41,659 bases of DNA from a virus (lineage: Duplodnaviria; Heunggongvirae; Uroviricota; Caudoviricetes). The DNA is taken from the IMG/VR virus record IMGVR_UViG_3300013307_000018, positions 144,312 to 185,970 of that record. The stretch is one strand, 5' to 3'. The notes under the pieces are model-generated. The model did not search any database, was not told where the DNA came from, and saw nothing but the letters and a program-made list of their open reading frames with translations. Of the stretch, positions 12,538-36,923 are shown in pieces. Each line of letters opens with the position of its first letter. Position 1 is the stretch's first letter. The translations under genes were made by a program, and so were the position numbers.

Positions 12538-13356
12538 TTAATTCATGTAGTGGTAATAGGCAACACCCACCACATTGCTGTTGTCGATACCGGTTTGCAC
12601 CACCACGCGGTCAAACGCTTTGTTGGCGTTACTCACCGCTGAGGTTGGTTGGTCTACCACGTAGTTACTGTTGAGTGGGGCGTCCCACTGCGGTAACCCA
12701 AACGTCGTGGTCATCACGTGTGACAAATCCGCAAAGCTCGGCATCCCCACCCCGGTGACAGACAGGAAGTTTTTAAACTCCGTGAAGTCCAACCCGATAG
12801 TGAGCATCTGGGCCGATTTGCGTTTGGTGTCCGTGACCGGGTGCTGGTAGGCATTCAGGTTGCGGTTGACCACAAACAAATCAAGCTTCGGTAAACCACG
12901 GTAGTAATACAGCGAGATGGAACTGGTTGTCAGCAACGGAGAATTTGCGTTCCCGCGAATGCTGGTTGACGCCGAGTAGTTCGCAGAGTTTACCCCACCA
13001 AACGCCGGGTTCGTCACATCCGCCTGTGTCAGCTTCAGACCATACCGGGTGTTGAACGCATCCAGCGTGTCAAAGAACTGTGTGGCACTGAAAGAATCTA
13101 CCCTGGCCTGAACCCCACTGAACAGCGTCGACAGACTCAGTCGGTTGTAATACACCGTTTTGTTACCGGTATAACCGGCACCCGCTAAGCCACGAATACG
13201 GGCTGAGGTGTTGTACTGCACCCCATCGATGGTGATGTTTACTGCCGTGATGGCTTCAATCGCGGTGTTGGTTTCTGAATACGGTATCTCGGACGGGTTC
13301 GCCTGGTTAATGAGGTCGAACACCATCTGCTTACCAGTTTTGGTATATAAAGGCAT
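12538..13356 (-). CDS. Virion fibre paralog-family protein
   Basis: YYNRLSLSTLF, FNTRYGLKL, linker LDLFVVNRNLNAYQHP and terminal GVAYYHY. Confidence 0.78.
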   Translation of the reverse strand: MPLYTKTGKQMVFDLINQANPSEIPYSETNTAIEAITAVNITIDGVQYNTSARIRGLAGAGYTGNKTVYYNRLSLSTLFSGVQARVDSFSATQFFDTLDAFNTRYGLKLTQADVTNPAFGGVNSANYSASTSIRGNANSPLLTTSSISLYYYRGLPKLDLFVVNRNLNAYQHPVTDTKRKSAQMLTIGLDFTEFKNFLSVTGVGMPSFADLSHVMTTTFGLPQWDAPLNSNYVVDQPTSAVSNANKAFDRVVVQTGIDNSNVVGVAYYHYMN

Positions 13357-13370
13357 GGGTTACGTCCTCA

Positions 13371-14276: not shown

Positions 14277-14285
14277 AGCCTATCC

Positions 14286-15110
14286 TCATAACAAATTGTA
14301 GTGTAAATAAATCGGGCCTTTGATGTTGTTGTCCACGATATCGCTGATAACCGTTACCTTTTGGTATCCCGGTCGTGCAGCAGCAACCACACCTTGTGCA
14401 TACGTTGCGATAGACGCTTTCGAATAATCGAAATTCGGGAAGCCGCGTCCGACTAACGTGGCAACTAACGCCGCACTGTTACCTGACGTGAAATTGGGAC
14501 CGGTCCCCATGGGGCCGTCCTTCATCGCCGTGAGCATGTTGAACTCATCGGTGAGGTCAAGACCAAAACTCAACATCGAAGCAGACCGTAATCCAGACTG
14601 AACATCAGCCGAACTCAGCGGGTGCCGGTAAGTATTGAGGTTACGTTCGTAGATGACATCGTTCAGTCGGTATCCGACGTTCACATACCGGGCGTTGGCG
14701 GTACCGACGTACTGCAGTGACTTAGGGTTTGCTACAACCGGAAAGTTGAGCTTGTCATAGAAACTGCGGTTGTTGAGGTCATCTGCGGTAAAGTTTAAGC
14801 CGTAACGGGCGTTGATGTTAGCCAACCCCTGAAGCACAGTACTGATAGCAGGCGCATCAAACGTCATCGTGAAGTTCTTGAACAACAAGGCCAAATCCAG
14901 GCGCTTGTAGCGAAACGTCACGCTGCCGATGTAACCGCGAAACTGAATACCCGACACCACGATTTCCGTGTTGTAGCCTTCAGGTGTGGTCGCAATCACC
15001 ACCGGGGAACCGACCTTACAGTTGTTCTCCGTAAGGGGGTACGGTGCTGCGTTGGCACGGTTCATCTCGTCTAACAACAACGCCTTGGGTGACTTGCTGT
15101 AAATAGCCAT
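14286..15110 (-). CDS. Virion fibre paralog-family protein
   Basis: ATG at 15110 (MAIYSKS) with GGAG SD. RYKRLDLALLF, INARYGL, linker LNDVIYERNLNTYRHP and terminal GPIYLHYN. Confidence 0.78.
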   Translation of the reverse strand: MAIYSKSPKALLLDEMNRANAAPYPLTENNCKVGSPVVIATTPEGYNTEIVVSGIQFRGYIGSVTFRYKRLDLALLFKNFTMTFDAPAISTVLQGLANINARYGLNFTADDLNNRSFYDKLNFPVVANPKSLQYVGTANARYVNVGYRLNDVIYERNLNTYRHPLSSADVQSGLRSASMLSFGLDLTDEFNMLTAMKDGPMGTGPNFTSGNSAALVATLVGRGFPNFDYSKASIATYAQGVVAAARPGYQKVTVISDIVDNNIKGPIYLHYNLL

Positions 15111-15136
15111 AGTGACTCCAAAAACGTTTATGGGAA

Positions 15137-15166
15137 AGAGTGGGCCGAGACCCACTCTCTATGCCG
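15137..15166 (-). terminator. Hairpin (terminator or processing site) inside the paralog array
   Basis: Minus strand CGGCATA-G-AGAGTGGG-TCTCGG-CCCACTCT-TT immediately after the 15170 stop. Confidence 0.6.
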
Positions 15167-15169
15167 CTA

Positions 15170-16063
15170 TCAGCTTGCGTTGTAACCCAGCGTCAGCACA
15201 CCACCCATGTTGGCGCACAGCGTGTCGTCGAGCTTGAACTGCACGATACGGTTGAACTTTTTGTTGGTGTCGCGTGGGTCGCCATTGGCATCCACGGCAT
15301 CGTTGACACCGGTGTAGACCACTTCCGCACTGGCGGTGTTGTAGTCTTTCGCTTCGTCGGCATCAAACACCCACACTTCCGGCACGATTTTGTTGAGTTC
15401 CACGGCCAATGAGTTATCGGCGATAACGTCGTTAAGCGCGCGGGCATCCAGCCATGCGGAGATGCTGTTGGCATCCACACCCCAGCTGTATTCACGGGCC
15501 TGGGCTTTGCTGGTATCAGCATTCGGATACAGCAGGCCGTTCAGGTTGGTGGTCAGAATCACCGTGTTCAGACGCTCACCGACTTCTGGGTCTGGACCCA
15601 CGGTCAGGGTCAGTTCACCGACGTAGGCCAGGGAGCCCGCAGCCGCTTTGATGGTTGTCGTCCACGGCGACGCACCTGTGGTATCGACAGGACCGTCCAC
15701 GATATCGCTTTCTTCAAGACCCATCCCGAAACGGGCATTGAGTGCCGGTAGCAGGCCTTTGATATCGGTCGGCTTAATTGGGTCGCCATTGCCATCTTCA
15801 CCCAAATCAAGGTTCACGGTGATTTTGGAGAACAGCAGCCCTAAGTCCAGACGGTTATAGGTAATGTCAACATTACCAATGTAACCACTGCCTTTAACCG
15901 ACAGCACACGGGCGCCGGTGTTGTGGTTGTTCGGGTCATCCGTCAGCGCAGTGGGATTGATGACGTTGATTTTGGTATCGTTCAGCGTGGTTTGGTTGGC
16001 CGCATTGATGAGGTCAATTACCAGGTCTAACGACGGTTTTGTCAAAATAGAGATGTCAGCCAT
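15170..16063 (-). CDS. Virion fibre paralog-family protein (possibly the most abundant member)
   Basis: YNRLDLGLLF, LNARFGM, SLAYVG, linker LNTVILTTNLNGLLYP and terminal GVLTLGYN. Followed by tandem stops and a hairpin. Confidence 0.8.
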   Translation of the reverse strand: MADISILTKPSLDLVIDLINAANQTTLNDTKINVINPTALTDDPNNHNTGARVLSVKGSGYIGNVDITYNRLDLGLLFSKITVNLDLGEDGNGDPIKPTDIKGLLPALNARFGMGLEESDIVDGPVDTTGASPWTTTIKAAAGSLAYVGELTLTVGPDPEVGERLNTVILTTNLNGLLYPNADTSKAQAREYSWGVDANSISAWLDARALNDVIADNSLAVELNKIVPEVWVFDADEAKDYNTASAEVVYTGVNDAVDANGDPRDTNKKFNRIVQFKLDDTLCANMGGVLTLGYNAS

Positions 16064-16081
16064 TTACAAGCTCCGGGAAAG

Positions 16082-16912
16082 TTAGGCGTTGTATTGCAGG
16101 TAGAGGTACCCGCCAAGTTTCAAACTGAATAAGGACAGACTGAGTACAAGAATCCGACTGTAGTTTTTGTTACCGGGATAAAGACTGTTGGTGTTCAGCC
16201 CGTTATACAAAAACTCTGCTTCTTTCAGGTTATAGTCCGCTGGGTTACGTCCTACTTGCCAGTCGTCACCGGTGACCGTTTTGAGTATCTGGGCCAGGCG
16301 CGTCAGGTCAAGGTTCTGGGTAGTAACCGTTTTGAGGTACGTACCATAATCTGAAAAGTCAAACCGGTAGGAGTAGACCTGGGCTTGTCCTAATTTGGTG
16401 TTGAAGTACGGGTAAAGGAAACTGTTGGTCAATCGCGTGGTAGCAAACGCATCACTGATGACCACGTCTCCCGGGGTAATAATGGCGGTGATTTCACCTA
16501 ACCATCCCAGGGATTCAGGTGCGGCTTTAATCAACACCCGACTGTTTACCCAGTCAATATCCGTGCGAACAATGTCGTCCACGCTGATATCCATCCCACA
16601 GAACTGCTTGATTTGTGCCAGCAAGTCATGAGACGTATTCGACAAATCCCCTGCAGGAAACCGCATGGGGTTGATGCCATCGAACTCCGTGAACACCGTG
16701 GTAAACGGTACCCGGTGATACTTCAGATTCATCGCCCCGCGAGCAGGCGCTTTCTGCGTCATGGTCATACGCACTTGCGTGTTATTCCCCTGAGCGTCAG
16801 TCTCGGGCAACGCCACCGGTAACCCAAACACGACGTCATCGTCTTGCAGGGCCAGTTGGGCAGTTGCGTTCACCGTGTCGATGAGATACTGACGTGCTGA
16901 TTTAATAAGCAT
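16082..16912 (-). CDS. Virion fibre paralog-family protein
   Basis: YHRVPF, SLGWLG, linker ISDAFATTRLTNSFLYP and terminal GYLYLQYN. Confidence 0.78.
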   Translation of the reverse strand: MLIKSARQYLIDTVNATAQLALQDDDVVFGLPVALPETDAQGNNTQVRMTMTQKAPARGAMNLKYHRVPFTTVFTEFDGINPMRFPAGDLSNTSHDLLAQIKQFCGMDISVDDIVRTDIDWVNSRVLIKAAPESLGWLGEITAIITPGDVVISDAFATTRLTNSFLYPYFNTKLGQAQVYSYRFDFSDYGTYLKTVTTQNLDLTRLAQILKTVTGDDWQVGRNPADYNLKEAEFLYNGLNTNSLYPGNKNYSRILVLSLSLFSLKLGGYLYLQYNA

Positions 16913-16913
16913 G

Positions 16914-17771
16914 TCACGTCCCCGACTGGTTAAAATGAAAGATAAGCTTACCGGTGTAGTTGGAGGCGGCGTCCAGCACTAACGTGTTGACGAACTCAAA
17001 GTTCTCGCTGTCATACTCGTCACTGGATTCTGCCCGCACTACCCCGCCCCATACGGCGTTGGCCAAAGAAACTTCTCCGTCCCCGACCGCATCCCCGGTA
17101 GCCAGGGTGTAACGTGTCGTGGTGACTGTGGTGATTTGGTCGAACTGATCTTGCGTTAACGTTTTCCCGGCATTCGCCGCTGCATTCGTTAACGTGGCAT
17201 AAATCGCCGTCCAGTCGTAACCGTATGCCAGGTATTCTGCACGGGGTTTAGTCGTGTAGGTCATATCCGGGTTAATGGCGTCGATGGTGCTGTTCGTTAC
17301 CAAATCGCTGATGTACGGCAATGTTTTTGCAAAGCGCACAGGTAAGCTACCTAACCAGGCCCAGTTGGTTGACTTCATCTCGATTGTGACAATCGCTGAT
17401 TCGGTCCCAGGCGCAATGGGTTGGTCCACAATGTCACCGACCTCCCATGCCAGACCGTAGAGGTCGTTCAGCAGGGGGAGGAGGTCGGAGTGTTTAGTTG
17501 GGCTTGGGTTAGCAATCACCAACGGGGTCAGACCCCTGAACATGTAGTCCAGGCGATAGCGCTGGTAGCTCAACTGGACGCTACCGTGATACCCTTTTCC
17601 ATACAGTCCGTAAACGGTGGAATAGGTGTTATAAAACGCCGTGTCTGCCCCGGTGGGAATGGGTAGGCCCATGCCAATTTGGTCAAGCGTAAGGGGGTTT
17701 GCCGTCAAGCCGTTATCACGATTAATAGCGTCCAGCAGCATCTGCTGAGACTTTCGTGCAATAGTTGCCAT
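16914..17771 (-). CDS. Virion fibre paralog-family protein
   Basis: YQRYRLDYMF, LNDLYGL, WAWLG, linker ISDLVTNSTIDAINP and terminal GKLIFHFN. Confidence 0.78.
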   Translation of the reverse strand: MATIARKSQQMLLDAINRDNGLTANPLTLDQIGMGLPIPTGADTAFYNTYSTVYGLYGKGYHGSVQLSYQRYRLDYMFRGLTPLVIANPSPTKHSDLLPLLNDLYGLAWEVGDIVDQPIAPGTESAIVTIEMKSTNWAWLGSLPVRFAKTLPYISDLVTNSTIDAINPDMTYTTKPRAEYLAYGYDWTAIYATLTNAAANAGKTLTQDQFDQITTVTTTRYTLATGDAVGDGEVSLANAVWGGVVRAESSDEYDSENFEFVNTLVLDAASNYTGKLIFHFNQSGT

Positions 17772-17816: not shown

Positions 17817-19964
17817 TTATACAAGGCCTGTTACGGGGGTTTTATACACTGAACCCACACTGACGTAATCAGAAAGCTGAGTAACCCCAGCGACACACCC
17901 CTGGGTGGTGTCCGCATTCACCCAGTCCACCGAGGAGTCCGACAGCAGTGCTTTAAAGTCCCCTGCAAAGCTGCCAGTTAACCCCACGGTATTCTGGAAC
18001 ACCGCTGAAATATCCCGCAGACTCGCCCGGGACTGCATCGCCCGGAACACGCTGCCGATGTTGCCCGTGAGCCCGGTCGATGCAAAGGTCGCCCGCATAA
18101 CCGCAAGATTGACCGTGGTGGCGAACAACCCGGCCGGTAACTGGGTGAGTTGACCACAGCGATGGAACAAGTGCGCAACATTGACAAGCTTGGGTGTCTG
18201 ACTGAACAGTTCAGCAGGAACACTGGTGATTAGCGTCCCGGAAAATGCCCCAGCCACTGAGACCAGTTTTGCGAGGGTTGCGAACAACCTACCTGGGATG
18301 GCGGTGATACCAGTATTGGCAAACACCCAATCCAGACTGGAAACATTCACCGGTCCATCGAGGATGGTGTCCGGTAAGGTCGTGATACCCGTACACCCAT
18401 ACCACACACCGTTAGCTGATTGTAAACGCAGCAATGGCGATAACAACCCTGGGGGGATCTCTTTGAGTTTGGTACAGTGACTGAAAATGTAGTCGATGGA
18501 CAGCAAACGCCGTACCGGTGCAAACAGCACCGTGGGGGTGGTGAGTATCCCGGTGTCCGCAAAGGTGTACTGAGCATACTCCAGGTTCGGACAGTTTTGA
18601 AACAGACCCGGTGGCACGCTTTTCACTAACCCACAGCCCTGAAACAACCGGTCAACGTTCACTAAGTCCGCCAGTCCTGTTAACAACCCCGGTGGGATGG
18701 TATCCAGGTTCCGACACTGAGAGAACATGCCTGCAATCGATTTAAGGCGTGTGTTAGCCTGTAGGAAGCCTTGTGACACAACACTGACCCAACCACAGCC
18801 CGCGAACAGATAACTCGCGTCAGTGAGCTTGGGGAGCGTTACAAGCAGGGTTGCTGGGATAGCGTGCGTCACCGCCTGCGTGTTAGCAAAACACCGGTGC
18901 AGGGTCTCCAATGCCGTGGTGGTACGGAACACCCCCACTGGAATTTGCGTCAATGCCGTGCAGTGCTCAAAGGCCATATCCAGACGACGCAACCGACTGC
19001 ATGATTCAAACAGGTTTTCAGGTAACCGGGTGATGGCCGTGTTACGAAACACCGCAGTGGCGGTTTGTAATTGTGAACACGGTGAAAACAACCGGTCAGG
19101 CAAAGTAGTCAACCCCACACACCCATCAAACATGTAATCCGCTGAGACCAACCCTGGACACAGAGCAAAGCAGTCAGGGTCGATAACCGTCAGGGTTTTA
19201 ATCCCACTGAAATACCCGGTACCGTCCACACTGCCCCGGTACTGGGTCAGTCGGGTGATGGGGATATACCGTCCGGCATTGTCCACAACCCGCACGATGC
19301 CGCCTCGTACCCGAATAGCCCGGGCACCGACCGCTAACGATTGGGGAAAGCGGTGAGCCAGTTGTTTGGTGCGTTTGTTCAGTGTGGCGGTCAGAGTAAC
19401 CCAGGCATCGCCGTCTACCGAACCTTCCAGTGTCACCGGCGTATCGGTGTACGCCACCACGGGGGTGAGGTCATCAGCACTGACAGCAAACCCGTACGCC
19501 ATGCCATCTTTGACCTGCAACCCTGCATCGTGAGTATAGCTGACGTTGGCACTGCCGATATACAGCGGCGAGACCGCATCATTAATCTGTACGGTGGCCA
19601 CACCGCTACGGGGTAAGGTTGCCTCGGCATTGAGCAGTTCGCTGTCCAGGACATCTAACCCGTGACGGGTACGCAATATCGCCACCAGGTCTTTCACGGT
19701 AACGATGCTGCGGTCTTCAATGAGTTCCGGGACTTGCCAGTACTGGGCAATATCAATCCGGTCATAGTGGACGGTGGAGCTACCCACATACCGGACGATG
19801 TCACCAGTGTCGAGAGCATACATCGTGGCCTGGGTGTTGCGAGTACCTCGGGGTGTGGCAGTGATGTCATCCAAATCGATGTTATCGGTACTGAGTGGCA
19901 ACGGGAGTGTCGGGTTAGCGGCCCGTGCCAGTGCCAGGACTTTGTTAATACGGTCGGTATTCAT
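17817..19964 (-). CDS. Fibre-family N-terminal domain fused to BspA/TpLRR-type leucine-rich repeats (putative adhesin)
   Basis: ATG at 19964 with GAGG SD. N-terminal family domain (NTQATM..VHYDRIDI..HGLDV..SPLYIG), then many ~24-26-aa repeats FxxCxxLxxIPxxLF. Confidence 0.8.
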   Translation of the reverse strand: MNTDRINKVLALARAANPTLPLPLSTDNIDLDDITATPRGTRNTQATMYALDTGDIVRYVGSSTVHYDRIDIAQYWQVPELIEDRSIVTVKDLVAILRTRHGLDVLDSELLNAEATLPRSGVATVQINDAVSPLYIGSANVSYTHDAGLQVKDGMAYGFAVSADDLTPVVAYTDTPVTLEGSVDGDAWVTLTATLNKRTKQLAHRFPQSLAVGARAIRVRGGIVRVVDNAGRYIPITRLTQYRGSVDGTGYFSGIKTLTVIDPDCFALCPGLVSADYMFDGCVGLTTLPDRLFSPCSQLQTATAVFRNTAITRLPENLFESCSRLRRLDMAFEHCTALTQIPVGVFRTTTALETLHRCFANTQAVTHAIPATLLVTLPKLTDASYLFAGCGWVSVVSQGFLQANTRLKSIAGMFSQCRNLDTIPPGLLTGLADLVNVDRLFQGCGLVKSVPPGLFQNCPNLEYAQYTFADTGILTTPTVLFAPVRRLLSIDYIFSHCTKLKEIPPGLLSPLLRLQSANGVWYGCTGITTLPDTILDGPVNVSSLDWVFANTGITAIPGRLFATLAKLVSVAGAFSGTLITSVPAELFSQTPKLVNVAHLFHRCGQLTQLPAGLFATTVNLAVMRATFASTGLTGNIGSVFRAMQSRASLRDISAVFQNTVGLTGSFAGDFKALLSDSSVDWVNADTTQGCVAGVTQLSDYVSVGSVYKTPVTGLV

Positions 19965-19979
19965 GGACATCCTCTTAAT

Positions 19980-20007
19980 GGCATAAATGGGAGGCACTGC
20001 CTCCCAT
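19980..20007 (-). terminator. Hairpin after tmk
   Basis: ATGGGAGGC-ACT-GCCTCCCAT, followed on the minus strand by TTATGCC. Confidence 0.6.
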
Positions 20008-22863: not shown

Positions 22864-23294
22864 TTGGTAAAGCGCAGGGTAAAAGAGCCGGTGATATACA
22901 GTGATGCGGGGTTCGCTGTCATCACCACATTGGCGTTGACGGCGTTCGGTGGCAGGGTCGCACTCAACACATCGGTCGGGGTGAGTGTGGTGCCGTACAT
23001 TGCATTGAGGATAGGAATCAAATCCCGGGTGGTCTGGGCATCGGGGTTGCGAATCACCACCGGGATAGCATAGAACAACCGGTCTAAACGAATGCGGCGC
23101 CAGCCAATCAGAATCGAATCCGTGAACCCGCTGTCCGGTAACGGACGCAGGGTCGCCTGGGTGTTAATCGTATCTTTGTCTGCCCCCAATACTTTCACCG
23201 CTTCCAGCACCACGTTCTCAACACTCAACGGTTTCTCAAGGGTGGTGGCATTCAACTGGGTGAAGCGGGCCAGAATGGTATCCAGGTTACTCAT
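22857..23294 (-). CDS. Single-domain fibre paralog-family protein
   Basis: NTQATL..WRRIRLDRLF..LNAMYGTTL..SLYITGSFTL. ATGA overlap with the upstream gene. Confidence 0.72.
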   Translation of the reverse strand: MSNLDTILARFTQLNATTLEKPLSVENVVLEAVKVLGADKDTINTQATLRPLPDSGFTDSILIGWRRIRLDRLFYAIPVVIRNPDAQTTRDLIPILNAMYGTTLTPTDVLSATLPPNAVNANVVMTANPASLYITGSFTLRFTKA

Positions 23295-24202
23295 GACAAC
23301 CCTACCTTACCAATGTCTTTGTTTACGAGAGACGCATCCAAATCCAGCGACGGGTCAGAGAAATGCAGCACGAGATAGCCGAACACGTCGGTACACAACA
23401 CCGCATCCAACACCACCACCACGATACGGTCAACGTTCAGTCGGTGGGTGAATTCCGCGAGCGGTCGACCCGCATAGAGAATCTGCAGGTTACCGCCAGG
23501 CTCAGCCAGATTGCGCACCGTCGGGGTGGTACTGACTCCCCACTGGTTTGCGGCAGGCAAGACCCCGTTGATAACACTCACCAGTGCTTGCGTGGTGGTA
23601 GGGTCAGTGACCCCGGCCTTGACCCCTTTTAACATCGGCCAATACGTATCAAAGTCATACGGTCGTAAATAGAGCGGACCTTGTGCTTTGGCGGACTGGG
23701 CTGTGGGGTAGTCAAAGACCGGGTCGAGCACCGTTTGCAATGCCGTGGTCAACGATTGACTGAATGCTTTAACCTCCACCGACAACGCCCCTACCCAGGC
23801 CAGCGAACTGTCCCGCATCTGAACGGTCACGGTGAGGGGTAAGGTGTTGGGATTGAAATACCGGACCTCGATATCCTCTTCCTCAAACACCGTCCCATAA
23901 AGCGCATTCACGGCTTGCATCACCGCCCAGGTATCGGACTCCCCATCCCAGGCAATCTCCACATTACATCGCGCAAAGACTTGAGCAATGTCCAGTCGTC
24001 GGTAACGTACCGTGACTTTGCCTGATACGCCTTCTTCATCGACGCCCACCACGTCCAGGGCCGTGTTACGTACGTCATTGGTTTTGCTGTCGGGTCTGAG
24101 GTTCGTCAGCACCACGTCATTGGGATTAAAGAACGTACCATTATCCCGGTTGATGAGGTTGTACACCAATGTCCGGGACGGGTAGATATACGGATGAGTC
24201 AT
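23291..24202 (-). CDS. Virion fibre paralog-family protein
   Basis: RYRRLDIAQVF, VNALYG, SLAWVG, linker LTTALQTVLDPVFDYP, KAQGPL and GYLVLHF. Extra tail LDASLVNKDIGKVGL. Confidence 0.78.
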   Translation of the reverse strand: MTHPYIYPSRTLVYNLINRDNGTFFNPNDVVLTNLRPDSKTNDVRNTALDVVGVDEEGVSGKVTVRYRRLDIAQVFARCNVEIAWDGESDTWAVMQAVNALYGTVFEEEDIEVRYFNPNTLPLTVTVQMRDSSLAWVGALSVEVKAFSQSLTTALQTVLDPVFDYPTAQSAKAQGPLYLRPYDFDTYWPMLKGVKAGVTDPTTTQALVSVINGVLPAANQWGVSTTPTVRNLAEPGGNLQILYAGRPLAEFTHRLNVDRIVVVVLDAVLCTDVFGYLVLHFSDPSLDLDASLVNKDIGKVGLS

Positions 24203-24217: not shown

Positions 24218-26485
24218 TTAGGTAGTTAGTTGTTGACTGACCGGTGGGAACACCGTGGGGTAATACAGTCCATTGAGGCCACGTACCACGATGACTTGTG
24301 CCAGCGGAATGCCTGACGGTTCTTGTTCCGGTAACGGGTCGATTTCATAAAACTCCAGCCCGTTCAGGTCGGTGACCGTTAACCGGTCAGCCAGTCCGTG
24401 TGTGCGGAACATCACCCCGGGGAGCGGTTGACGCAAGGCCGAATAGAGATAGCCGTTATGGCGAACCTGCATGTCCGGCACGACGTCCACGGCTTCACGT
24501 CCTTTAATCACAATCCAGGCCGACGTATCGGTCACACCCCCGACCAAATCCACAGCTTGGGATGCTTTTAACCGCATCCGGTCACGCAAGACCTCTGGAC
24601 CCGGGTGAGGAATGTGGTCAGACGCCAGCAGTTTGGTCTGGTCATCCCCCATGCGGATGTACCCATCGTTAATGGCTTTGACTTGCCCACTGTTGATGGT
24701 CTGAATCCACTGGGTTGAGTACGAGGACATCTGCGACATGAACTTAATCATCGCCCCTTGAATCTCAGCCAGGGATTTCACATCCGTTAAGTCCTGTCCG
24801 GTTGCCACCTTCAGGATTTCAGCACACAGTGTTGAGCTGTCTAAATCGTCGAGCTCCACCACGTACCAACCCCGGGCTTTGAAATAGTCTTCAAAGCGGG
24901 AGTGGTCGTTATCCAGCACACAGTTCACCCAGCCGTAGCAGCGTGTTACTGCTGCTTCACATTGTCCCCGTGCCACGTAGTTCTCGTGGGTGGTGTACAT
25001 GTAGTACTGATTAATGGCGGCGGTGTGGATGGCGTTGGTGGTGTTGAGGAAAGCTTCGGTTGAAAGCATCACCCCGACATCGGCATTCGACTCCAGAATC
25101 CACTGCAGTTCCTGGTCACTGACGTAAGCCGGTAAGGTTTGGTCTCGCAGGTCATAGAACGATGGCAGCGGCGTTAACCGAACCCGATTGGCCACCACAT
25201 CCGGAATGGTGTCCATCACCACCCCGTAGGTGCGGTTCACGGTATAGAGCCAGACCACAAACGCTTCCAGTGCCGACATGGACATCAGTGCCCCGGTGTA
25301 GGGGTTGGTGACCTGTATCTTTGCCCGGTAGTAGTTGTGGGTGGCTTTATGTACCCATTCGTTCAACGCAATCTCGGCCGACGGGTACACATCCGATGCA
25401 CTGGAGTCAATGACTGACGACTCCAGGATTTTGGTTGGCAGGATGTTGTTGGCTGAGACCTCCATGCGGTCGGTGATATCCACGGTATCCACATCGATAT
25501 CGTTGAGGTTATCGCGGGCTAACCGCGCTTCCCGACTCAGCATGTTCTGCACGGTATGGGTGGCTTTGCCGCCGGTGAGTTTATCCCGGTCGTTACGGGA
25601 AATGCGCTGCAAGGCAATCGCCGGGTACAGTGACTCACCGGTTTCGAACTCGGTGATGTCGTGAATCATTTTGTACCAGGCAACCGGCAACCCACGCTCA
25701 CTCATCACGTTTTCAATCAACGTGGTCTGGTTTGCTACCCGTCCGGCATTCATCTGCAAATACTTGACGTTACGGTACAACCACAGCGCTTGTTTGGTGG
25801 TGAAGAAATTGCGGTACTCGCCGAGGTTGCCGTTGGACTCTAAATATTCCCAGATGTGGTAAGAATGCGCAAACTCCGTTTTGCAATTCCCTAACCGCAG
25901 GGTCATGATAATCCCGGGCAGGTGTGCCAGATACCCACCCACCGTCGCCGGTCGATAGAGGTCGTCCACGACATCAAACGCGGGCGAGGCCCACCGACTG
26001 AACCAGGCATGGGTCCAGTCCTGTAACCGGGGAATCAGATTGACTTCCGTGGGTTCCACCAAATCGGCTTCATAGCCCAGAATAGTATTGTCCGGGGCTT
26101 TGATGGCTCGGGTCAGGTCGACCGGATTCAGAATACCGCGAATCAACAGTTCCTGCGTTGGGTATCGTTTGACTAACTCCTCGTAGTAAACACTACCAAA
26201 GGCATAGGCTTTCCGGGTTGCCCGGTTATCCTGTAGGGCCGCCGTGGTAAAGGAAATCGTTTCCAGACTGTCGAGTGATGTAACGGACATCATAGTGTCC
26301 GTAGAATGATACGCCCCAGATATATTTTTATAGTAGCGCCATGTGGTCGGGTCATCCGACACGGCATACCCTCTTTCCGTGAGATCGTTGTTCATCGCTT
26401 CAGCTGTAGCAACGTTCTTCACTACCAATGTCTTGGCGAGTTTGATGACGTCTGATACGTAAAGCCCATAAAGTGTATTGGACAC
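24218..26485 (-). CDS. Large virion structural protein, baseplate wedge-like (phiKZ gp128-like by position)
   Basis: GTG at 26485 with GGAGG SD; divergent from the portal gene. Motifs WRYYKNISGAYH, LIRGILNP, HSYHIWEYL and QALWLYRN. The C-terminus has two docking-like motifs. Confidence 0.7.
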   Translation of the reverse strand: MSNTLYGLYVSDVIKLAKTLVVKNVATAEAMNNDLTERGYAVSDDPTTWRYYKNISGAYHSTDTMMSVTSLDSLETISFTTAALQDNRATRKAYAFGSVYYEELVKRYPTQELLIRGILNPVDLTRAIKAPDNTILGYEADLVEPTEVNLIPRLQDWTHAWFSRWASPAFDVVDDLYRPATVGGYLAHLPGIIMTLRLGNCKTEFAHSYHIWEYLESNGNLGEYRNFFTTKQALWLYRNVKYLQMNAGRVANQTTLIENVMSERGLPVAWYKMIHDITEFETGESLYPAIALQRISRNDRDKLTGGKATHTVQNMLSREARLARDNLNDIDVDTVDITDRMEVSANNILPTKILESSVIDSSASDVYPSAEIALNEWVHKATHNYYRAKIQVTNPYTGALMSMSALEAFVVWLYTVNRTYGVVMDTIPDVVANRVRLTPLPSFYDLRDQTLPAYVSDQELQWILESNADVGVMLSTEAFLNTTNAIHTAAINQYYMYTTHENYVARGQCEAAVTRCYGWVNCVLDNDHSRFEDYFKARGWYVVELDDLDSSTLCAEILKVATGQDLTDVKSLAEIQGAMIKFMSQMSSYSTQWIQTINSGQVKAINDGYIRMGDDQTKLLASDHIPHPGPEVLRDRMRLKASQAVDLVGGVTDTSAWIVIKGREAVDVVPDMQVRHNGYLYSALRQPLPGVMFRTHGLADRLTVTDLNGLEFYEIDPLPEQEPSGIPLAQVIVVRGLNGLYYPTVFPPVSQQLTT

Positions 26486-26522
26486 GTAAATCCCTCCGCT
26501 CGACCTAAGGAGCTTTCCTAAA

Positions 26523-29201
26523 ATGCAGCATAAGAAAAATGAAGAATCGCTGGTAAGTGAATTCCAGCGGATGGATTTCTTCAAAAATAATGATGTCGCC
26601 CAGGCGATTGTGACCAAAATGGTTCCGCAGGTCGCACAATCCCGGACGCGGGGGAACGGTAACGACGACATCATCCCTGACCAATCCACACTGGAACGCA
26701 TCAGTAAAATGGTGGCATCGGATATCGATGACGCTCACAACATGATGCAAATCCACACGGACCTCGGTCTGGCAAAAGAAATCATGGTGTCGTTGATTAT
26801 CGCACCCAAAGACCTGTTAACCCACAAACTGATTTGGGGGACCGGCAAGTGCGATTTACCCACCGGTTTGGTCGGCGCAATCACAGACCACCTCTCAACC
26901 TATTTTGACCAGGGCTATAAAATTAACGACCTGTTAATTCCGGCCTGTGAAGATGCCCTGTTTAACACTGGCAGTTACCCGTTGGTTATCATCCCGGAAA
27001 GCTCACTGGATGACATCATTAACCAGAACGGTCGTATCTCAGTAGAATCCCTGCAGAGCGATACCCGTCTGTTTGAAGACGGCCACGCCAAAAACATTGG
27101 GATTCTGGGTCCGGGTAATGCGGTGGTGGGTGACGGTAAAGAACGCAAAGTCGTCCAGACGGTACGCAAGGGCTTTGGTCTGGAATCCCTCTCGGGGTTG
27201 TCACACGTCGATGTACGCTCCAGCCCGTGGTTTGATGACAAACTCCGTATTCTCGACTCCACCGATAACCTGAAATTCCCACTGCTGCAAGAACGCTTGA
27301 CGCAGGAGATGTTACGTGACCGCATGAACTACGGTAACGTGGCACTGGAAAGTCTGGAGCGGGATAAAGAACTCGAGTCCCTACAGGATGCGTTGTTTGT
27401 ACGGCGCCCGACCCGTAACATTCCTGTGATTGGGATTGACGCTGCGGGCAACAGCTCACGTCTGCCGAAAGGGCATCCGTTGGTGATGAAGCTGCCGTCG
27501 GAGTCGATTATCCCGGTTCACACACCAGGCAGTCCCACTGACCACCTGGGTTACTTTGTCATGATTGATGAGTTTGGTAACCCGGTGACGCGTGCACAGT
27601 CTCAGGACTACTACAAACAGCTCACGTCCAACATGAACTCCAAGCTTGACAACTACGGCAGTCAAGCCAAATCGTTGCTGAGTAACGTACAGGCGTTTAT
27701 GGGGCCGAACTGCGAGACCTCCAAGTTTGATGGCATGCAGCTTATCAGTGCCTATGGCGGGATGTTAAAGCATGAACTGCTGACTCGCCTCAAACGCGGA
27801 CTGTACGGTGAGAACGTGGAGCTGTCGGATATCGCCGGACAAATCTACACGGTGATGCTGTCTCGTACCCTGGCGAACCTGCACACGTCACTGCTTTACG
27901 TGCCGGTGGAACAATGTACCTACATCGCGTTCGACTACAACAATGCTGGGTGTGGGAAGTCACTGCTGAGTGATGTGAAAATCCTGGCTGCTCTGCGTTC
28001 CACGCTGTTGTTTACCGACACCATGATTGCGCTGAAGAATGCGGTTCCCCACCGTAAGGTTGCCCTGGCGCTGGATGAGACTGACCCAGACCCGGATAAA
28101 ACCATTTCCCTGGTGCAGAACGAGTTTGCCAAGACGTTGAACTACGCGTTCCCGTTAGGGGTGACTGACCCGAAAGAACAAATCGACATGTTACAAAAAG
28201 CAGGCGTGACCTGGGAAATTACGGGACACCCCCAATACCCCACCACGTCCCTGCAAGTCGAAACCACGAATTCTCAGTTTGCTCGCATCGAACCGGAGTT
28301 TGCTGAGAACATCCGTAACATGATGTTCATGGGGATTGGTATTCCTCCTGAAATCGTGGACTCCAGCCTGAACGTAGAATTTGCGGCCTCTGTGTATTCC
28401 AGCAACTTACTACTTGCTAAGCGTTCGGCACAGAAGCAACAAATCCTCACGGGCTTCATGGTGGATTTTGTCCGCAAATATGTCAGCAGTGACGGTACGC
28501 TGATGCAGGAACTGCGCGACATCATTGATGGTCACCGGGAAGACCTGAAGAAAATGCGAGAGGGGGACGAGGAGCTTCGCTATTCAAACGTGATTAAGAT
28601 GTACCTGGATGCGTTGAAACTGACGTTACCGGCTGCAGACCAAGCCCGTGTGAAAACGCAGCTCGAAGCAGTGAACGACCAGATTGCACTTTACGACGCC
28701 TTGTTGCCAGTGGCTATCAACGAAACCGTATTGCGCGAGATGATGGGTGAGGACTACGAGCAATACGCCGATGCCGTGATTCAGGCTGTTCGCAGTAATC
28801 TGCTGATGGACTGGATGGTACAGGAAAACATCGCCCCTGAGATTCAGAAGTTGGTCCGTAAAGCCGACGATGAAAACCCAGGCTACGACTTCCTGACCGC
28901 ACGACTGGAGCACGTCGAAGCCCTCTCTGTGACCATTGCGGAGTACGTGAAGAAGCTGGCTAATCGCAATGGCGGTACCGATGAGAACGCAGACGCAGGG
29001 GGTTCAGGTGACGCTGGCAACAACGACACTGATGGTGGCACCGCTGATTTTGATGATGGTATGGATTTTGGAGCTGGTTTTGACGAAACGACGCCAGGCG
29101 AAACGCCGTCCGATGACGGTAGCGACGCAGAAGGCGATACGACGACACCGCCAGAAGACGAAGAGAATCCTGACGGCACCACACCACCTACAACCTTTTA
29201 A
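26523..29201 (+). CDS. Portal protein (phiKZ gp129-like)
   Basis: 892 aa. Motifs GHPLVMKLPSESIIPVH.PG.P..HLGYFV.IDE.GNP and FDYN..GCGKSLL, protease-type S/A/G-x-E sites and an acidic tail. Size and synteny match phiKZ-like portals. Confidence 0.75.
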   Translation: MQHKKNEESLVSEFQRMDFFKNNDVAQAIVTKMVPQVAQSRTRGNGNDDIIPDQSTLERISKMVASDIDDAHNMMQIHTDLGLAKEIMVSLIIAPKDLLTHKLIWGTGKCDLPTGLVGAITDHLSTYFDQGYKINDLLIPACEDALFNTGSYPLVIIPESSLDDIINQNGRISVESLQSDTRLFEDGHAKNIGILGPGNAVVGDGKERKVVQTVRKGFGLESLSGLSHVDVRSSPWFDDKLRILDSTDNLKFPLLQERLTQEMLRDRMNYGNVALESLERDKELESLQDALFVRRPTRNIPVIGIDAAGNSSRLPKGHPLVMKLPSESIIPVHTPGSPTDHLGYFVMIDEFGNPVTRAQSQDYYKQLTSNMNSKLDNYGSQAKSLLSNVQAFMGPNCETSKFDGMQLISAYGGMLKHELLTRLKRGLYGENVELSDIAGQIYTVMLSRTLANLHTSLLYVPVEQCTYIAFDYNNAGCGKSLLSDVKILAALRSTLLFTDTMIALKNAVPHRKVALALDETDPDPDKTISLVQNEFAKTLNYAFPLGVTDPKEQIDMLQKAGVTWEITGHPQYPTTSLQVETTNSQFARIEPEFAENIRNMMFMGIGIPPEIVDSSLNVEFAASVYSSNLLLAKRSAQKQQILTGFMVDFVRKYVSSDGTLMQELRDIIDGHREDLKKMREGDEELRYSNVIKMYLDALKLTLPAADQARVKTQLEAVNDQIALYDALLPVAINETVLREMMGEDYEQYADAVIQAVRSNLLMDWMVQENIAPEIQKLVRKADDENPGYDFLTARLEHVEALSVTIAEYVKKLANRNGGTDENADAGGSGDAGNNDTDGGTADFDDGMDFGAGFDETTPGETPSDDGSDAEGDTTTPPEDEENPDGTTPPTTF

Positions 29202-34579: not shown

Positions 34580-34646
34580 AAAAAATAAAATAGACTGACG
34601 GCATAGCAGGCTCTCTACCCGCAAAGGTAGAGAGCCTGTATGTGTC
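34580..34646 (-). terminator. Terminator of the capsid gene
   Basis: CAGGCTCTCTACC-loop-GGTAGAGAGCCTG stem with outer arms. The minus strand continues CTATGCCGTC..TATTTTATTTTTT. Confidence 0.85.
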
Positions 34647-34682
34647 TTTCGCCGTTTACCGTTGGCTACGTACTTATCACGG

Positions 34683-34742
34683 CTACTCGAATGGAGTCGC
34701 GTGCAATCCGTCAAGTACGCGGTTACGGATTACGGTGCCCAG
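34683..34742 (-). other. In-frame readthrough extension of the capsid protein (LGTVIRNRVLDGLHATPFE*)
   Basis: Translated by hand after the TGA at 34743-34745; ends at TAG 34683-34685. Matches the fibre-family linker motif and overlaps a 9-bp hairpin. Confidence 0.6.
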
Positions 34743-36923
34743 TCAAGCTGCCAGCTCTTTGGTGTTGTAAATCGCTGCAGAGCGAGATGCTTTAACCAGG
34801 TTGGTTACGGACAGTTTGATGAGGATCGGCAGGTTGATGACGTGACGGAAACGCGGCTGAACCTGACGCTCCATGATGGTAGCACCGTTACGGTTCACCT
34901 GGGCAGAAATCGCCAGCTCAGGGATGTACAGCATGTTACCGAAGGTCAGTGGGTCGTGTTTGCCAGTGCCTTTGCGACCGAAGCTCAGGAAGATGGTGTC
35001 ACGCATACGCAGGTCGTTAACCGAAGTTACAGACATGGTAGCGTTGGCACCCAGGTAACGGTCGTCACCCTGAGTAATCAGGTACTTCGGCAGAACCGGG
35101 TCAGTTACCGCGATAACACGCAGCTGTTCAGTAGAACCGCCGTTGTTTGCACGCAGTGACACTTCGTAACCGGTTTCACGGCACGCACGTGCAATGACTT
35201 CACGGATTACAGAAACCAGCACGCCCTGGATATCGTCAACCTTGTTAGCAGAACTGGTAGAGTTCAGCTCGGCCTGGATATCAACCGGGATAGCTTCGTA
35301 GAACGGCGCAACCAGCAGCTCACCCGGAGTTTCGAATGAAGGATACAGGTTGATGGTTTCAGAAGACACGAACCAGTCGTTCAGCGTTTTGTCGAAGTCC
35401 AGCAGCGTGGTCACTGCGGCGTTTTCGATTTGCATGTGAACGCCCTGAACCAGCGCATTCAGGTCGAGACCCAGGTTTTCCTGACCGATTGGCGTCTGAG
35501 AAACCAGCGGTGCGTTCAGTGGAACGTAGTACGCACGGGTTTCCATATCCGGGTTCAGGATCAGGCCTTTGGTACGTAAGTTGCTGTTCGTGCGACGAGC
35601 ATCAACATCGTAACCAATCACTTCGAAGGTCAGGCCTTCCAGTGCGGTCTGTACAGCCGGGGTATCGATACCGACTTCTTTGCCGTCTTCGTCGAGGACA
35701 CGGATAATGTCAACGCCTGAAGAGAACACCACTTCGTTAGAAGTTTCCAGGTTGATGTTACCAGAAATGCTGGTACCCAGAACCAGGGTGTATTTACCGG
35801 CAGTAACGTCAGCCAGTGCAGCGCCTGCAGCGCCAGATGTATCGACCGCACCTGCTTTCAGCGTCAGAGAAGACGGGTTGAAGCTCAGGGTCATAGTACG
35901 CAGGTTACATTCCATCGGACGGAAGAAACCAGCGCCTGGCAGGTTCAGTGTACGGATACGGTACACAGACTCAGTTGGATCAGCACCCGCAGCGCCTGCT
36001 TTAGAAGCGGCGATGTAGATATTTTTCAGAGAGACTTTAGGCTCAACGGCATCAGTTTCACCGATAGCACCGGCCAGACGCAGAGCTTCGTTAGAAGACA
36101 GCGCGATCAGGCTGTGTTTGGTGTTGATGCGCAGTGGCGCCGTGGTCACAGTTACTGCACCCACTTTCGCAGAGGATGGAGCAACAGCTGCTTTGTCAAC
36201 GAACTTGTCGTTGTTCACGCCATCACGATAAATCGGCACCAGGTCGGTACTGTTGTTCATCAGGATGGTGTAGTCCAGCGCAGCGCGGATCAGGTTGTGC
36301 TTTTTGAAGTCAGCCGGGTCGCCAGACTGGTCAGGAGAGATATACTCGTTCTGCACCAGAATACGCGGGATGTTGATACGGAATACCACTTCATCAGGGG
36401 TACCGACAACAACCGGGAACCAGTCATCGTTGAACGGAGACTGACCGATGGCCAGGGCGTTGAACACCACAGACACGTCGATGCCTTTCTGCAGTTCCAT
36501 GTTATCAAACGCTTCCAGTGACACGAAGCGGTCAGATGGCTGACGATAACCGAAAGTACCTACAGAAGACGAGCTCGCTGGCATTTCAGTGCTTTCCAGC
36601 GATACGGTCTGCGATGCGCGTACGTAACCCAGTGGATCGCCGTAGGCAGATGCAGTGATGGTTGCTGCTTCCAGCTGCTCTTGGCTCAGCACGTAACCAC
36701 CGAACTCAGCGTCTTTAAAGATGGCGCCCAGGGTTTTGGACAGGGTCTGCGAATCACGTTGGTGATTAGCAAAGTTCTGGCCTTCCAGGGATTCCATCGA
36801 CACCATGTTCTGAGTCATGTTCTTTGGTACCAGTGCAGCACCCTCGCTTTTCAGGGTTGCACCGATTTCGTTGGCAGCCAAACGCGCAGCGGCGATGGTA
36901 TCTTTACCAGTAAGTCTTGACAT
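34743..36923 (-). CDS. Major capsid protein precursor (phiKZ gp120-like)
   Basis: ATG at 36923 with AAGGA SD and strongly biased codon usage. The propeptide has SME/SLE sites ending in VSLEAFD. Motifs IGYDVDARRTNSNLRTKG, PLTFGNMLYIPE and VQPRFRHVINLPIL. Confidence 0.9.
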   Translation of the reverse strand: MSRLTGKDTIAAARLAANEIGATLKSEGAALVPKNMTQNMVSMESLEGQNFANHQRDSQTLSKTLGAIFKDAEFGGYVLSQEQLEAATITASAYGDPLGYVRASQTVSLESTEMPASSSSVGTFGYRQPSDRFVSLEAFDNMELQKGIDVSVVFNALAIGQSPFNDDWFPVVVGTPDEVVFRINIPRILVQNEYISPDQSGDPADFKKHNLIRAALDYTILMNNSTDLVPIYRDGVNNDKFVDKAAVAPSSAKVGAVTVTTAPLRINTKHSLIALSSNEALRLAGAIGETDAVEPKVSLKNIYIAASKAGAAGADPTESVYRIRTLNLPGAGFFRPMECNLRTMTLSFNPSSLTLKAGAVDTSGAAGAALADVTAGKYTLVLGTSISGNINLETSNEVVFSSGVDIIRVLDEDGKEVGIDTPAVQTALEGLTFEVIGYDVDARRTNSNLRTKGLILNPDMETRAYYVPLNAPLVSQTPIGQENLGLDLNALVQGVHMQIENAAVTTLLDFDKTLNDWFVSSETINLYPSFETPGELLVAPFYEAIPVDIQAELNSTSSANKVDDIQGVLVSVIREVIARACRETGYEVSLRANNGGSTEQLRVIAVTDPVLPKYLITQGDDRYLGANATMSVTSVNDLRMRDTIFLSFGRKGTGKHDPLTFGNMLYIPELAISAQVNRNGATIMERQVQPRFRHVINLPILIKLSVTNLVKASRSAAIYNTKELAA

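Follow-up and report, generated by a model that had tools for sequence, protein, structure and literature searches.

In the small ssRNA phage Qbeta, ribosomes occasionally read through the UGA that ends the coat gene. The resulting extended subunits (A1, with an extension of about 200 residues) number a few per particle, and their extension is needed for a virion function. Among dsDNA phages, T7/T3 (10A/10B) and the Listeria phages A118 and PSA also make a minor, C-terminally extended capsid form by recoding, and these extensions are displayed on the outside. We know of no partner for the T7 10B extension. In luteoviruses, readthrough of a stop codon yields the minor capsid species CP-RTD, which projects from the shell and mediates protein interactions.

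A second relevant system is that of the DUF7941 filaments (Goslar gp22/gp23 and phiKZ gp126/gp127). In the available passages of a preprint on Goslar, the linker of one DUF7941 protomer is proposed to dock on the N-domain of the next, leading to head-to-tail filaments (bioRxiv 10.64898/2026.04.21.720040). The basis given there is AlphaFold predictions for all proteins and, for gp22 of Goslar alone, filaments seen in negative stain. The same passages place the DUF7941 proteins at the peripheral baseplate rather than the head, estimate more than 2,500 copies per Goslar virion, and assume six anchor sites. They mention neither the capsid stop codon nor readthrough. According to passages on the solved phiKZ baseplate, DUF7941 corresponds to PHIKZ127 (PMC13250141).

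Here, we introduce a capsid gene whose end may connect these two kinds of system. The gene lies in a stretch of 41,659 nucleotides from a virus of the class Caudoviricetes (IMG/VR record IMGVR_UViG_3300013307_000018), which we call the window. It is somewhat probable, in our judgment, that low-level readthrough of the capsid UGA gives a minor tailed form of the capsid protein that anchors DUF7941 filaments to the head. We found no report in print of such a TGA-plus-tail arrangement of the capsid gene in these phages.

The capsid stop codon and the frame behind it

The major capsid protein gene (34746..36923, minus strand, 726 codons) is of the phiKZ gp120 type. Its product gives a full-length match to Pfam PF25620 well above the curated cut-off (E 3.4e-188; a score of 627 bits, with the cut-off at 27, over positions 2-632 of the 635 in the profile). 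The N-termini of homologs match the ATG at 36923, and solved homologs are 11bt, 36za, 8bfl, and 8y6v (gp120). The preliminary description of this end of the gene was confirmed in the sequence. On the minus strand, the gene closes with TGA (34745-34743, context TGA-C), the candidate leaky stop, followed by 19 in-frame sense codons (34742-34686) that would encode the tail and by TAG (34685-34683). Same-frame back-up stops follow immediately (TGA, 34679-34677; TAA, 34676-34674), and the TAG-xxx-TGA pattern behind the tail is also seen in the close relatives L005 and L009. A repeat search found the tail element as a single copy in the genome to which the window belongs (G000). We rejected small ORFs that read this island independently, in another frame or on the opposite strand, because they are not conserved.

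Beyond the stops lies an unexplained stretch of 28 nt (34646..34673, minus strand) that possibly pairs with the tail-coding RNA. It is conserved in L005, partly in a contig from wastewater, and not in L009. A 9-bp hairpin located 9 nt past the UGA and a possible helix between its loop and a downstream segment were seen by eye only. The capsid operon likely ends in a 14-bp GC-rich hairpin (34606..34639, minus strand), which places the terminator past the second stop, as had been proposed. Since the T-run on the capsid strand begins about 15 nt past the stem, a simple scan called this hairpin only on the plus strand. Canonical hairpin-plus-T-run terminators are present at the equivalent place in L005 and L009. 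The RNA-library contig X3 spans the capsid gene through the tail and ends at 34641, which is weak evidence for the transcript end because contigs cannot show true ends. With a terminator downstream of the tail, an RNA contig across this region is expected anyway. The short contigs X11, X12, and X14 differ from the window at 0 to 1 positions. Two other contigs, X18 and X19, depart from the capsid gene short of its end, and X8 contributed nothing.

The TGA, the frame, and the peptide are retained in all three close relatives compared, whose genomes are otherwise 65-80% identical in DNA. The capsid of L005 is 83% identical and the C-terminal part of that of L009 is 86% identical. The wastewater contig matches the tail region only, and is best read as carrying a 3-nt in-frame insertion before the stop. 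L010 is truncated ahead of the capsid end and falls outside this comparison. Between G000 and the complete relative G001, the 57 nt after the capsid stop are 91% identical, against a median of 35% for the flanks of 123 ortholog pairs. The capsid flank is one of the six most conserved. The other five are explained: four hold coding sequence of the next gene, and one belongs to a spurious ORF that runs antisense to the capsid gene.

The substitutions in the tail look like those of a coding sequence. One Leu codon alternates between CTG and TTA and another among CTT, CTA, and CTC; the changes in the Ile and Pro codons are also synonymous. Three amino-acid changes occur, all at non-motif positions. 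Third codon positions differ from those of L009 at 4 of 19 codons in the tail and at 114 of 299 in the capsid gene, so the tail is somewhat better conserved; the codon-position skew alone is not significant (about p=0.1, binomial calculated by hand). In L005, conservation extends about 35 nt beyond the tail stop, which indicates that some nucleotide-level constraint also exists. As judged from these alignments, in which changes among close relatives are mostly synonymous, the TGA and the in-frame peptide behind it are conserved under purifying selection at the protein level. The preliminary description had called for such a comparison of capsid 3' flanks, and its expectation of a conserved stop and in-frame motif is borne out in L005 and L009.

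Searches for further close relatives gave little. Three DNA patterns taken from the element found only the L005 contig among viral contigs, and genome contigs gave no match by protein or DNA. In the nearest named relatives, Eowyn, KpGz_1, and KpHz_2, the capsid gene ends in TAA and has no tail. The tail is therefore dispensable or replaceable.

A wider view comes from 19 other chimallivirus capsid genes, hand-picked across genera from a list of 220 records. Eight end in TGA and 11 in TAA. An open in-frame run of 16-55 codons follows the stop in 8 of 8 TGA genes and in 1 of 11 TAA genes (Fisher p=1.2e-4, for genes that are not phylogenetically independent). The length of the open frame by itself is unremarkable; the 19 comparison loci contain 2,210 stop triplets, and at least 16 open codons follow 809 of them (background 0.366). 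A UGA of the leaky type thus closes the coat ORF in the window, in L005 and L009, and in 8 of the 19 distant phages. The last sense codon before the stop is mostly Ala, Gly, or Pro. The base after the TGA is not uniform, with TGAC in the window, TGAT in L009, TGAA in five distant phages, and TGAG in one. The argument for leakiness from the UGAC context, which the preliminary description had made, is lost with this variation. Nor is the stop unusual, as had been claimed, since TGA closes 62 of 217 ORFs in this genome and TGAC 17 of 217.

The Xanthomonas phage RTH11 carries the motif fused inside the capsid ORF, before a TAA. This fused form speaks for the peptide as a genuine appendage of the capsid. 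It also makes too strict the earlier rule that a sense codon at this place in a relative would reveal a sequencing error.

Tails and linkers of the DUF7941 proteins

The window encodes a large set of DUF7941 proteins, all on the minus strand. Seven tandem genes (11629..17771) belong to the phiKZ gp126/gp127 family (PF25613, E 1e-22 to 4e-60). Each of their products consists of an N-domain, a disordered linker with the motif, and a C-domain. In the AF2 model of a DUF7941 protein, the N-domain is confident and the linker (residues 160-198) has a pLDDT below 50. The DUF7941 profile finds PHIKZ127 (9xqd, E 1.8e-18) in the PDB; a phmmer search of the PDB with one paralog gave no match. The AF2 model of the short DUF7941 protein, built from an alignment of four sequences, is of low confidence and uninformative, with a mean pLDDT of 52.8 and the tail below 50. 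Another gene (17817..19997) combines a DUF7941 N-domain (PF25613 on residues 20-155) with leucine-rich repeats (LRR_5), and its product is likely a host-recognition member of the filament system. A further DUF7941 gene (23291..24202; PF25613, E 1e-52) adjoins the wedge gene and is the gp127 counterpart by synteny. The wedge gene (24218..26701) encodes a homolog of the phiKZ baseplate protein gp128 (PDB 9xqs, PHIKZ128, E 6.5e-111, residues 75-698). The wedge protein has an extra C-terminal tail with two linker-like motifs, conserved in G001.

The capsid tail in the window carries a motif that we call class A, L-x2-h-h-x4-L-x-G-[LF]-x2/3-P. The four paralog motifs quoted for comparison in the preliminary description are real and lie on the minus strand at 15524-15571, 14619-14666, 12838-12885, and 24257-24304, the last being the second motif of the wedge protein. 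The claim that the tail aligns to the fibre-family linker without gaps holds in part. The likeness is far above chance, but the last proline lies one residue out of register. A profile of eight motifs from the window scores the tail at 7.7 bits, third among the non-training matches of 6,377 six-frame peptides of the genome; with the same profile, the tail is fourth of 9,711 in the independent relative genome. A second profile was made of 19 DUF7941 linkers, of which five other phages contributed 18, and the tail matches it significantly. It gives 21.9 bits for the window tail, 22.3 for L005, and 19.0 for L009, and places the window tail and the relative's copy first and second among the 16,088 six-frame peptides that G000 and G001 yield together. 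The capsid tails of PhiEaH1 (17.9 bits), Goslar (10.2), and SPLA10 (8.8) and the fused C-terminus of RTH11 (7.7) follow, and that of 2050HW reaches only 1.7 bits.

A match to a second class of tails was predicted from this result and then tested. The class-B profile consists of four tails of short DUF7941 proteins, and its background maximum is 6.6. The capsid tails of four Pseudomonas phages score high on this profile (PA7, 42.5 bits; HPP-Temi, 35.0; Phabio, 23.8; Noxifer, 18.4), and the remaining capsid tails score at most 1.1 bits. In Goslar, seven consecutive residues of the capsid tail are identical to the tail of a 201-codon DUF7941 frame with an N-domain plus linker. The appended capsid peptides thus fall into two classes, each matching the tail or linker of DUF7941 proteins. 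At the level of sequence, the class of the capsid peptide is that of the DUF7941 tails in the same phage, as seen from the class profiles and from direct reading of the sequences.

The window tail and the paralog motifs agree at 18-24 of 48 nt, which speaks against a recent DNA copy, and a recent duplication of a paralog motif was rejected on this ground. Since the capsid protein shares only the short tail motif and its Pfam match is to PF25620 alone, it is not a member of the DUF7941 family (PF25613).

Possible decoding of the UGA and roles of the tail

The tail is probably translated and functional. In the proposed mechanism, ribosomes would pass the capsid UGA at a few percent, most simply by means of a near-cognate tRNA-Trp. 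The capsid has about 1,600 subunits, and at this level of readthrough each head would carry tens of them with a tail. The C-termini of HK97-fold proteins are generally external, as in T7 10B display and encapsulins, and the tail may likewise be exposed on the outside of the capsid. The published passages on these capsids at hand say nothing of the orientation of the C-terminus. The 19 residues of the tail copy the tail or linker motif found in the DUF7941 filament proteins that this phage encodes, and docking of the tail on a DUF7941 N-domain, as predicted, would tether filaments to the head. In that case, the frequency of readthrough would set the number of anchor points. The core of the preliminary description, namely a peptide predicted to be translated by readthrough and to dock the fibre family, gains support from the comparison of phages. 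We give about an even chance to anchoring of DUF7941 proteins on the capsid as the function of the tail.

A translated tail may serve in other ways. It could cap or limit the growth of filaments, tether procapsids to DUF7941 assemblies during maturation, or mark special capsomers. The evidence for translation and mimicry fits these roles equally, and the published maps, in the passages available, put DUF7941 proteins at the peripheral baseplate and describe no head fibers there. However, no observation prefers capping or tethering to anchoring. Furthermore, the mismatch between the more than 2,500 DUF7941 copies estimated for Goslar and the six anchor sites assumed, as given in the preprint passages, is easier to accommodate with extra anchors. 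We regard a role other than anchoring filaments on the mature head as rather unlikely. A quite different possibility is that the conserved stretch is not translated and acts as an element in the 3' UTR of the capsid gene, either RNA or DNA, with a function in stability, processing, or termination. Such an element would agree with the conservation past the tail stop in L005 and with the well conserved third positions. A possible helix between the Leu codon region and the segment after the stops, with one compensatory change in L009, was also noted by eye. Distant phages, however, share no nucleotide sequence there and yet keep the TGA, the frame, and a peptide of their own DUF7941 class, and RTH11 has the motif within the ORF. 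The folding energies are ordinary, no better than those of shuffled sequences (z -0.46; -1.3, -0.2, and -1.4), MFE structures differ among relatives, and folding revealed no conserved stimulatory structure after the UGA. A search of Rfam with 34400-34900 found no family, only eight sub-threshold matches at chance level. These points make a purely non-coding element very improbable.

Least credible to us is a tail on every subunit, either because a suppressor tRNA, selenocysteine insertion, or another code decodes the TGA efficiently or because the TGA is an assembly error. G001 does encode a tRNA-Trp(CCA), a near-cognate reader of UGA, and, as RTH11 shows, a capsid protein can bear a constitutive tail. 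But G000 has no tRNA-Trp at the syntenic site, and a search of both genomes revealed no tRNA with a UCA anticodon. TGA is an ordinary stop in both, closing 98 of 329 ORFs in the other genome in addition to the count given above for G000. Within 34400-34900, the Rfam matches up to E 10 include no SECIS-like element, and the sequence behind the TGA differs widely among phages. The TGA is seen in independent assemblies and runs, which argues against an assembly error. The 12 capsid homologs in the protein collection (717-754 aa) all lack a fused tail.

Readthrough at a low level, with the tail as an anchor, may extend well beyond this phage. Programmed readthrough of the capsid UGA could be a widespread device of the Chimalliviridae, including Goslar and phiKZ-type phages, by which each head receives mimics of the DUF7941 tail in a set number. 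The DUF7941 subunits, thousands in each virion, would then make up a filament coat anchored on both capsid and baseplate, and the class of the tail would co-evolve with the phage's own short DUF7941 protein. We propose this generalization tentatively and rate it a little short of even.

Relation to known systems

If the proposed readthrough occurs, a recoding event would be added to the best-studied jumbo phages, since Goslar and PA7 of the phiKZ genus share the TGA-plus-tail arrangement. It would be a rare instance of stop-codon readthrough in a structural gene of a dsDNA phage, with its rate as a dial for the stoichiometry of a virion appendage. The puzzle of Goslar, that is, the many DUF7941 subunits and few assumed anchor sites of the preprint passages, would become directly testable. 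The tail behind the leaky stop would also mark a capsid site that tolerates sub-stoichiometric C-terminal additions, which may be useful for display and labeling in jumbo phages. A readthrough product of this kind is currently missed by gene callers and proteomic databases.

The arrangement resembles that of Qbeta in the UGA that ends the coat gene and in the few extended subunits predicted per particle. Unlike Qbeta, this virus has dsDNA and is a jumbo phage; its HK97-fold capsid comprises about 1,600 subunits, and its readthrough is a prediction from sequence. Furthermore, the capsid tails here are 16-55 residues long and copy the docking tail of another virion protein. The minor extended capsid forms of T7/T3 and of the Listeria phages A118 and PSA are closer with respect to the type of virus. 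These phages shift frame by -1 or +1 at slippery sites, whereas the tail described here continues in frame 0 right after the stop, which points to readthrough and not to a frameshift of the T7 10B type. Unlike the T7 10B extension, the capsid tail has an indicated partner family. Luteovirus CP-RTD shares the proposed mechanism, but it belongs to a eukaryotic plant RNA virus, follows a UAG stop, and adds a large domain with no mimicry of a partner's tail. With the DUF7941 filaments of Goslar and phiKZ, the capsid tail has in common the motif of the docking linker or tail. The capsid protein differs from the filament proteins in having no DUF7941 N-domain, and it would be a pure anchor that gives a tail and receives none.

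The capsid stop codon and its in-frame tail

An IMG/VR phage record of 185,970 bp, with an estimated completeness of 69%, ends with the 41.7 kb of the window. The window encodes a phiKZ-type major capsid protein of 726 residues (34746-36923, minus strand; PF25620, E = 3.4e-188), whose solved homologs include phiKZ gp120 (entry 8y6v). The ORF is closed by a TGA (34745-34743, minus strand), directly followed by 19 sense codons in the capsid frame (34742-34686, minus strand), hereafter the tail. The same frame then reads TAG, one codon, TGA, and TAA, and a 14-bp hairpin (34606-34639, minus strand) lies downstream of these stops. The preliminary description had transcribed this 3' end correctly, and the four paralog motifs that it quoted are found where it placed them in the window. 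From a soil metatranscriptome library, one contig of 1,935 nt spans the 3' part of the capsid gene and the tail with three differences. It stops at 34641 (minus strand), immediately ahead of the hairpin, which would fit a transcript end at that position, although contig ends cannot show true ends.

Among named phages, the closest are Klebsiella phage Eowyn and Serratia phages KpGz_1 and KpHz_2 (DNA identity about 75%). In all three, the capsid gene ends in TAA and is followed at once by a terminator, and the tail is absent. Comparison of the capsid 3' flanks with those of two closer relatives, proposed earlier as a check, shows that the TGA and the in-frame peptide are kept in L005, the capsid-bearing IMG/VR contig of the complete 278,524-bp genome G001 (capsid 83% identical to that of the window), and in the metagenome contig L009 (C-terminal 300 capsid residues 86% identical). 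In each of the two, TGA occupies the codon that it has in the window, an 18-19-codon peptide continues in frame, and the next stop falls at that of the window or one codon away. The DNA of G001 and of the full record (G000) is just 65-80% identical where alignable. Among 123 ortholog pairs of these genomes with alignable C-termini, the 57 nt after the stop have a median identity of 35%, whereas the capsid flank reaches 91%, tied for second. The other five of the top six flanks are accounted for, four as coding sequence of the next gene and the fifth because its ORF is spurious and lies antisense to the capsid gene. On these grounds, the tail stretch, as judged from the alignments, is under purifying selection.

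Substitutions within the tail look like coding changes. One Leu is CTG or TTA among the relatives, another is CTT, CTA, or CTC, and one Ile and one Pro vary synonymously; three amino-acid replacements all fall at positions not used by the motif described below. Third positions account for 4 of 8 and 3 of 5 changes, a skew that is weak by itself (p about 0.1, hand calculation), and the third positions of the tail are, if anything, better conserved than those of the capsid gene. Two 109-nt contigs from a wastewater run match the tail region only and have different flanks; one of them reads on with a difference best taken as an in-frame insertion of 3 nt ahead of the stop. A fused tail is absent from all 12 capsid homologs (717-754 residues) in the protein collection. 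Behind the tail stops, L005 and, in part, a wastewater contig also match a 28-nt stretch of the window (34646-34673, minus strand), which L009 does not conserve. Inspection by eye shows that the tail's Leu-codon region can pair with the first bases of this stretch, one change in L009 being compensatory; folding gave nothing significant.

Likeness of capsid tails to DUF7941 proteins

The window contains seven tandem genes (11629-17771, minus strand) and a separate gene (23291-24202, minus strand) of the filament-protein family DUF7941 (PF25613), composed of an N-domain, a linker, and in some members a C-domain. Their profile matches PHIKZ127 (E = 1.8e-18) in entry 9xqd, a solved phiKZ baseplate. 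In an AlphaFold2 model of one paralog, the N-domain (residues 1-158) is confident, and the linker that holds the motif (160-198) has pLDDT below 50. The paralogs at 11629-12525 and 23291-24202 (minus strand) bear extra short, motif-like C-terminal tails (L-x-G-L type) past the domain. Outside the window, two adjacent short genes with N-domain and tail and without C-domain (G000 8188-8760 and 8865-9413, locus L088) encode products ending in L-D-G-L-x-x-P, a pattern common to the capsid tail. The pair corresponds to the gp23 type that is very abundant in Goslar, and its C-termini are the closest in likeness to the capsid tail. An 827-codon ORF (24218-26701, minus strand) encodes a homolog of the phiKZ baseplate-wedge protein gp128; its true start probably lies downstream of the listed ATG 26701 (26480-26701, minus strand), homology to solved homologs running from residue 74. 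About 125 extra C-terminal residues of this homolog (noted at 24218-24445, minus strand) contain two linker-like motifs and are conserved in G001; they could anchor DUF7941 filaments at the baseplate, as the capsid tail would at the head.

The likeness between capsid tail and paralog motifs is at the protein level, with 18-24 of 48 nucleotides identical. A profile of eight window motifs gives the tail 7.7 bits, third among non-training matches in the six-frame translation of G000, where two junk-frame matches score higher; in G001, the tail is fourth of 9,711 peptides, above three true linkers. With a broad 19-row linker profile (18 rows from Goslar, PhiEaH1, 2050HW, SPLA10, and RTH11, and one window paralog), the tails of the window, L005, and L009 score 21.9, 22.3, and 19.0 bits. 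Of 16,088 six-frame peptides from G000 and G001, the top two are the own-clade tails, and true linkers score below them (17.7, 13.9, and lower).

Distant relatives gave the deciding comparison. A tblastn search with the capsid C-terminus found 220 phage records; 18 were chosen across genera from an evenly spread listing of 60 before their stops were known, and Eowyn was added. The sample spans at least five to six lineages, with capsid proteins 23-40% identical to that of the window. Eight of the 19 genes end in TGA (Goslar, PhiEaH1, 2050HW, SPLA10, the phiKZ-genus phage PA7, Phabio, HPP-Temi, and Noxifer), all with 16-55 open codons in frame after the stop. The 11 others end in TAA, with 0-10 open codons in ten and 52 in Phobos (AT-rich, without the motif). 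Stop codon and open frame are associated (Fisher's exact p = 1.2e-4) in these 19 hand-picked genes, which are not independent by kinship, Phabio and HPP-Temi being close; the background chance of at least 16 open codons behind a stop triplet in the same loci is 0.366. After TGA, five sequences have a Thr codon, five a Leu codon, and one an Ala codon; most of the last sense codons before it encode Ala, Gly, or Pro.

Two classes of tail can be told apart. Class A (L-x2-h-h-x4-L-x-G-[LF]-x2-P) comprises those of the window clade, PhiEaH1, Goslar, and SPLA10, the last three scoring 17.9, 10.2, and 8.8 bits with the linker profile; 2050HW has the motif by eye only (1.7 bits). Goslar has a 201-codon DUF7941 frame whose tail is identical to the capsid tail over seven consecutive residues. 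Xanthomonas phage RTH11 carries the class A motif inside the capsid ORF, ahead of a TAA (7.7 bits). Erwinia phage Ea35-70 has a weak motif-like L-G-G-L-x3-P (1.0 bit) in a long Thr/Pro-rich capsid C-terminus. Class B, a repeated R-x-L-E-[DN]-G, is found in the four Pseudomonas phages. Class B ends were predicted for DUF7941 proteins of these phages and then found on the 180-188-residue proteins (N-domain and tail) of PA7, Phabio, and Noxifer, and on one in PhiEaH1. A profile of these four DUF7941 tails gives the capsid tails of PA7, HPP-Temi, Phabio, and Noxifer 42.5, 35.0, 23.8, and 18.4 bits, against at most 1.1 bits for all other capsid tails and a background maximum of 6.6. PhiEaH1 has short DUF7941 tails of both classes and a class A capsid tail; therefore, both classes can coexist in one phage.

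Proposed readthrough and docking

The simplest account of these sequences is that the tail peptide is made by low-level UGA readthrough. UGA is the leakiest stop in enterobacteria, where it is read by near-cognate tRNA-Trp. Low-level readthrough would yield a minor capsid form with a C-terminal tail, which would mimic the DUF7941 tail and bind a DUF7941 N-domain. At 1-5% readthrough, a head of about 1,600 capsid subunits (1,615 in Goslar) would carry about 16-80 tailed ones. By analogy with T7 10B display and encapsulins, the capsid C-terminus is probably exposed outward. That readthrough appends a docking peptide for the fibre family was the core of the preliminary description, and it is supported by the conserved TGA and frame, the distant TGA genes, and the DUF7941-tail classes. 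The accompanying argument from an unusual UGAC context fails because TGA (62 of 217 ORFs) and TGAC (17 of 217) are ordinary stops in the window genome; the base after TGA also varies (C, T, A, or G) among the capsid genes.

The tailless Eowyn clade counts against a readthrough tail. A purely nucleic-acid element is the alternative, and the conservation past the tail stops, seen in L005 and to some extent in the wastewater contig, points to some constraint on the nucleotides as well. Such an element cannot explain that distant phages with unrelated DNA still keep the TGA, the frame, and a peptide of their own DUF7941-tail class, and it leaves the fusion of the motif within the RTH11 capsid ORF unexplained. 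Chance was excluded as the source of the likeness and the arrangement.

As for UGA readthrough, folding and Rfam demonstrated no stimulatory RNA structure at the stop or tail, and no suppressor tRNA was found in G000 or G001. G001 has tRNA-Trp(CCA), a near-cognate UGA reader, which G000 does not have at the syntenic site. The G001 locus (47303-49159) also holds tRNA-Asn(GTT) and an odd tRNA with a two-base anticodon (ARAGORN), whose G000 counterpart at 31466-31542 is called tRNA-Ser(GCT).

This DUF7941 module is described in a 2026 Goslar preprint (bioRxiv 10.64898/2026.04.21.720040). Its AlphaFold predictions have each linker docking on the N-domain of the following protomer, and filaments of purified gp22 are seen by negative stain. 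By mass spectrometry, a virion holds about 2,140 copies of gp23 (N-domain and linker only) and about 580 of gp22. The authors derive a filament length of nearly 3 micrometres because they assume six baseplate anchor sites. Against docking on the head, published maps site DUF7941 proteins at the baseplate.

Relation to known systems

The titles and abstracts searched describe no readthrough of a capsid gene in jumbo or phiKZ-like phages; "readthrough" in one phiKZ paper has the transcription sense. The words readthrough and stop codon are absent from the main text of the Goslar preprint (bioRxiv 10.64898/2026.04.21.720040). The arrangement reaches well past the window, into model phages, and is unexpected, general, and directly testable.

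Qbeta A1 is the classical readthrough product of a coat gene's UGA, and T7, T3, and some Listeria phages make minor C-extended capsid proteins via frameshifting. As in Qbeta, a coat-gene stop would be read through here. In contrast to Qbeta, the hosts of the arrangement are dsDNA jumbo phages, and the appended peptide would mimic the docking tail of a filament protein, a combination that appears new.
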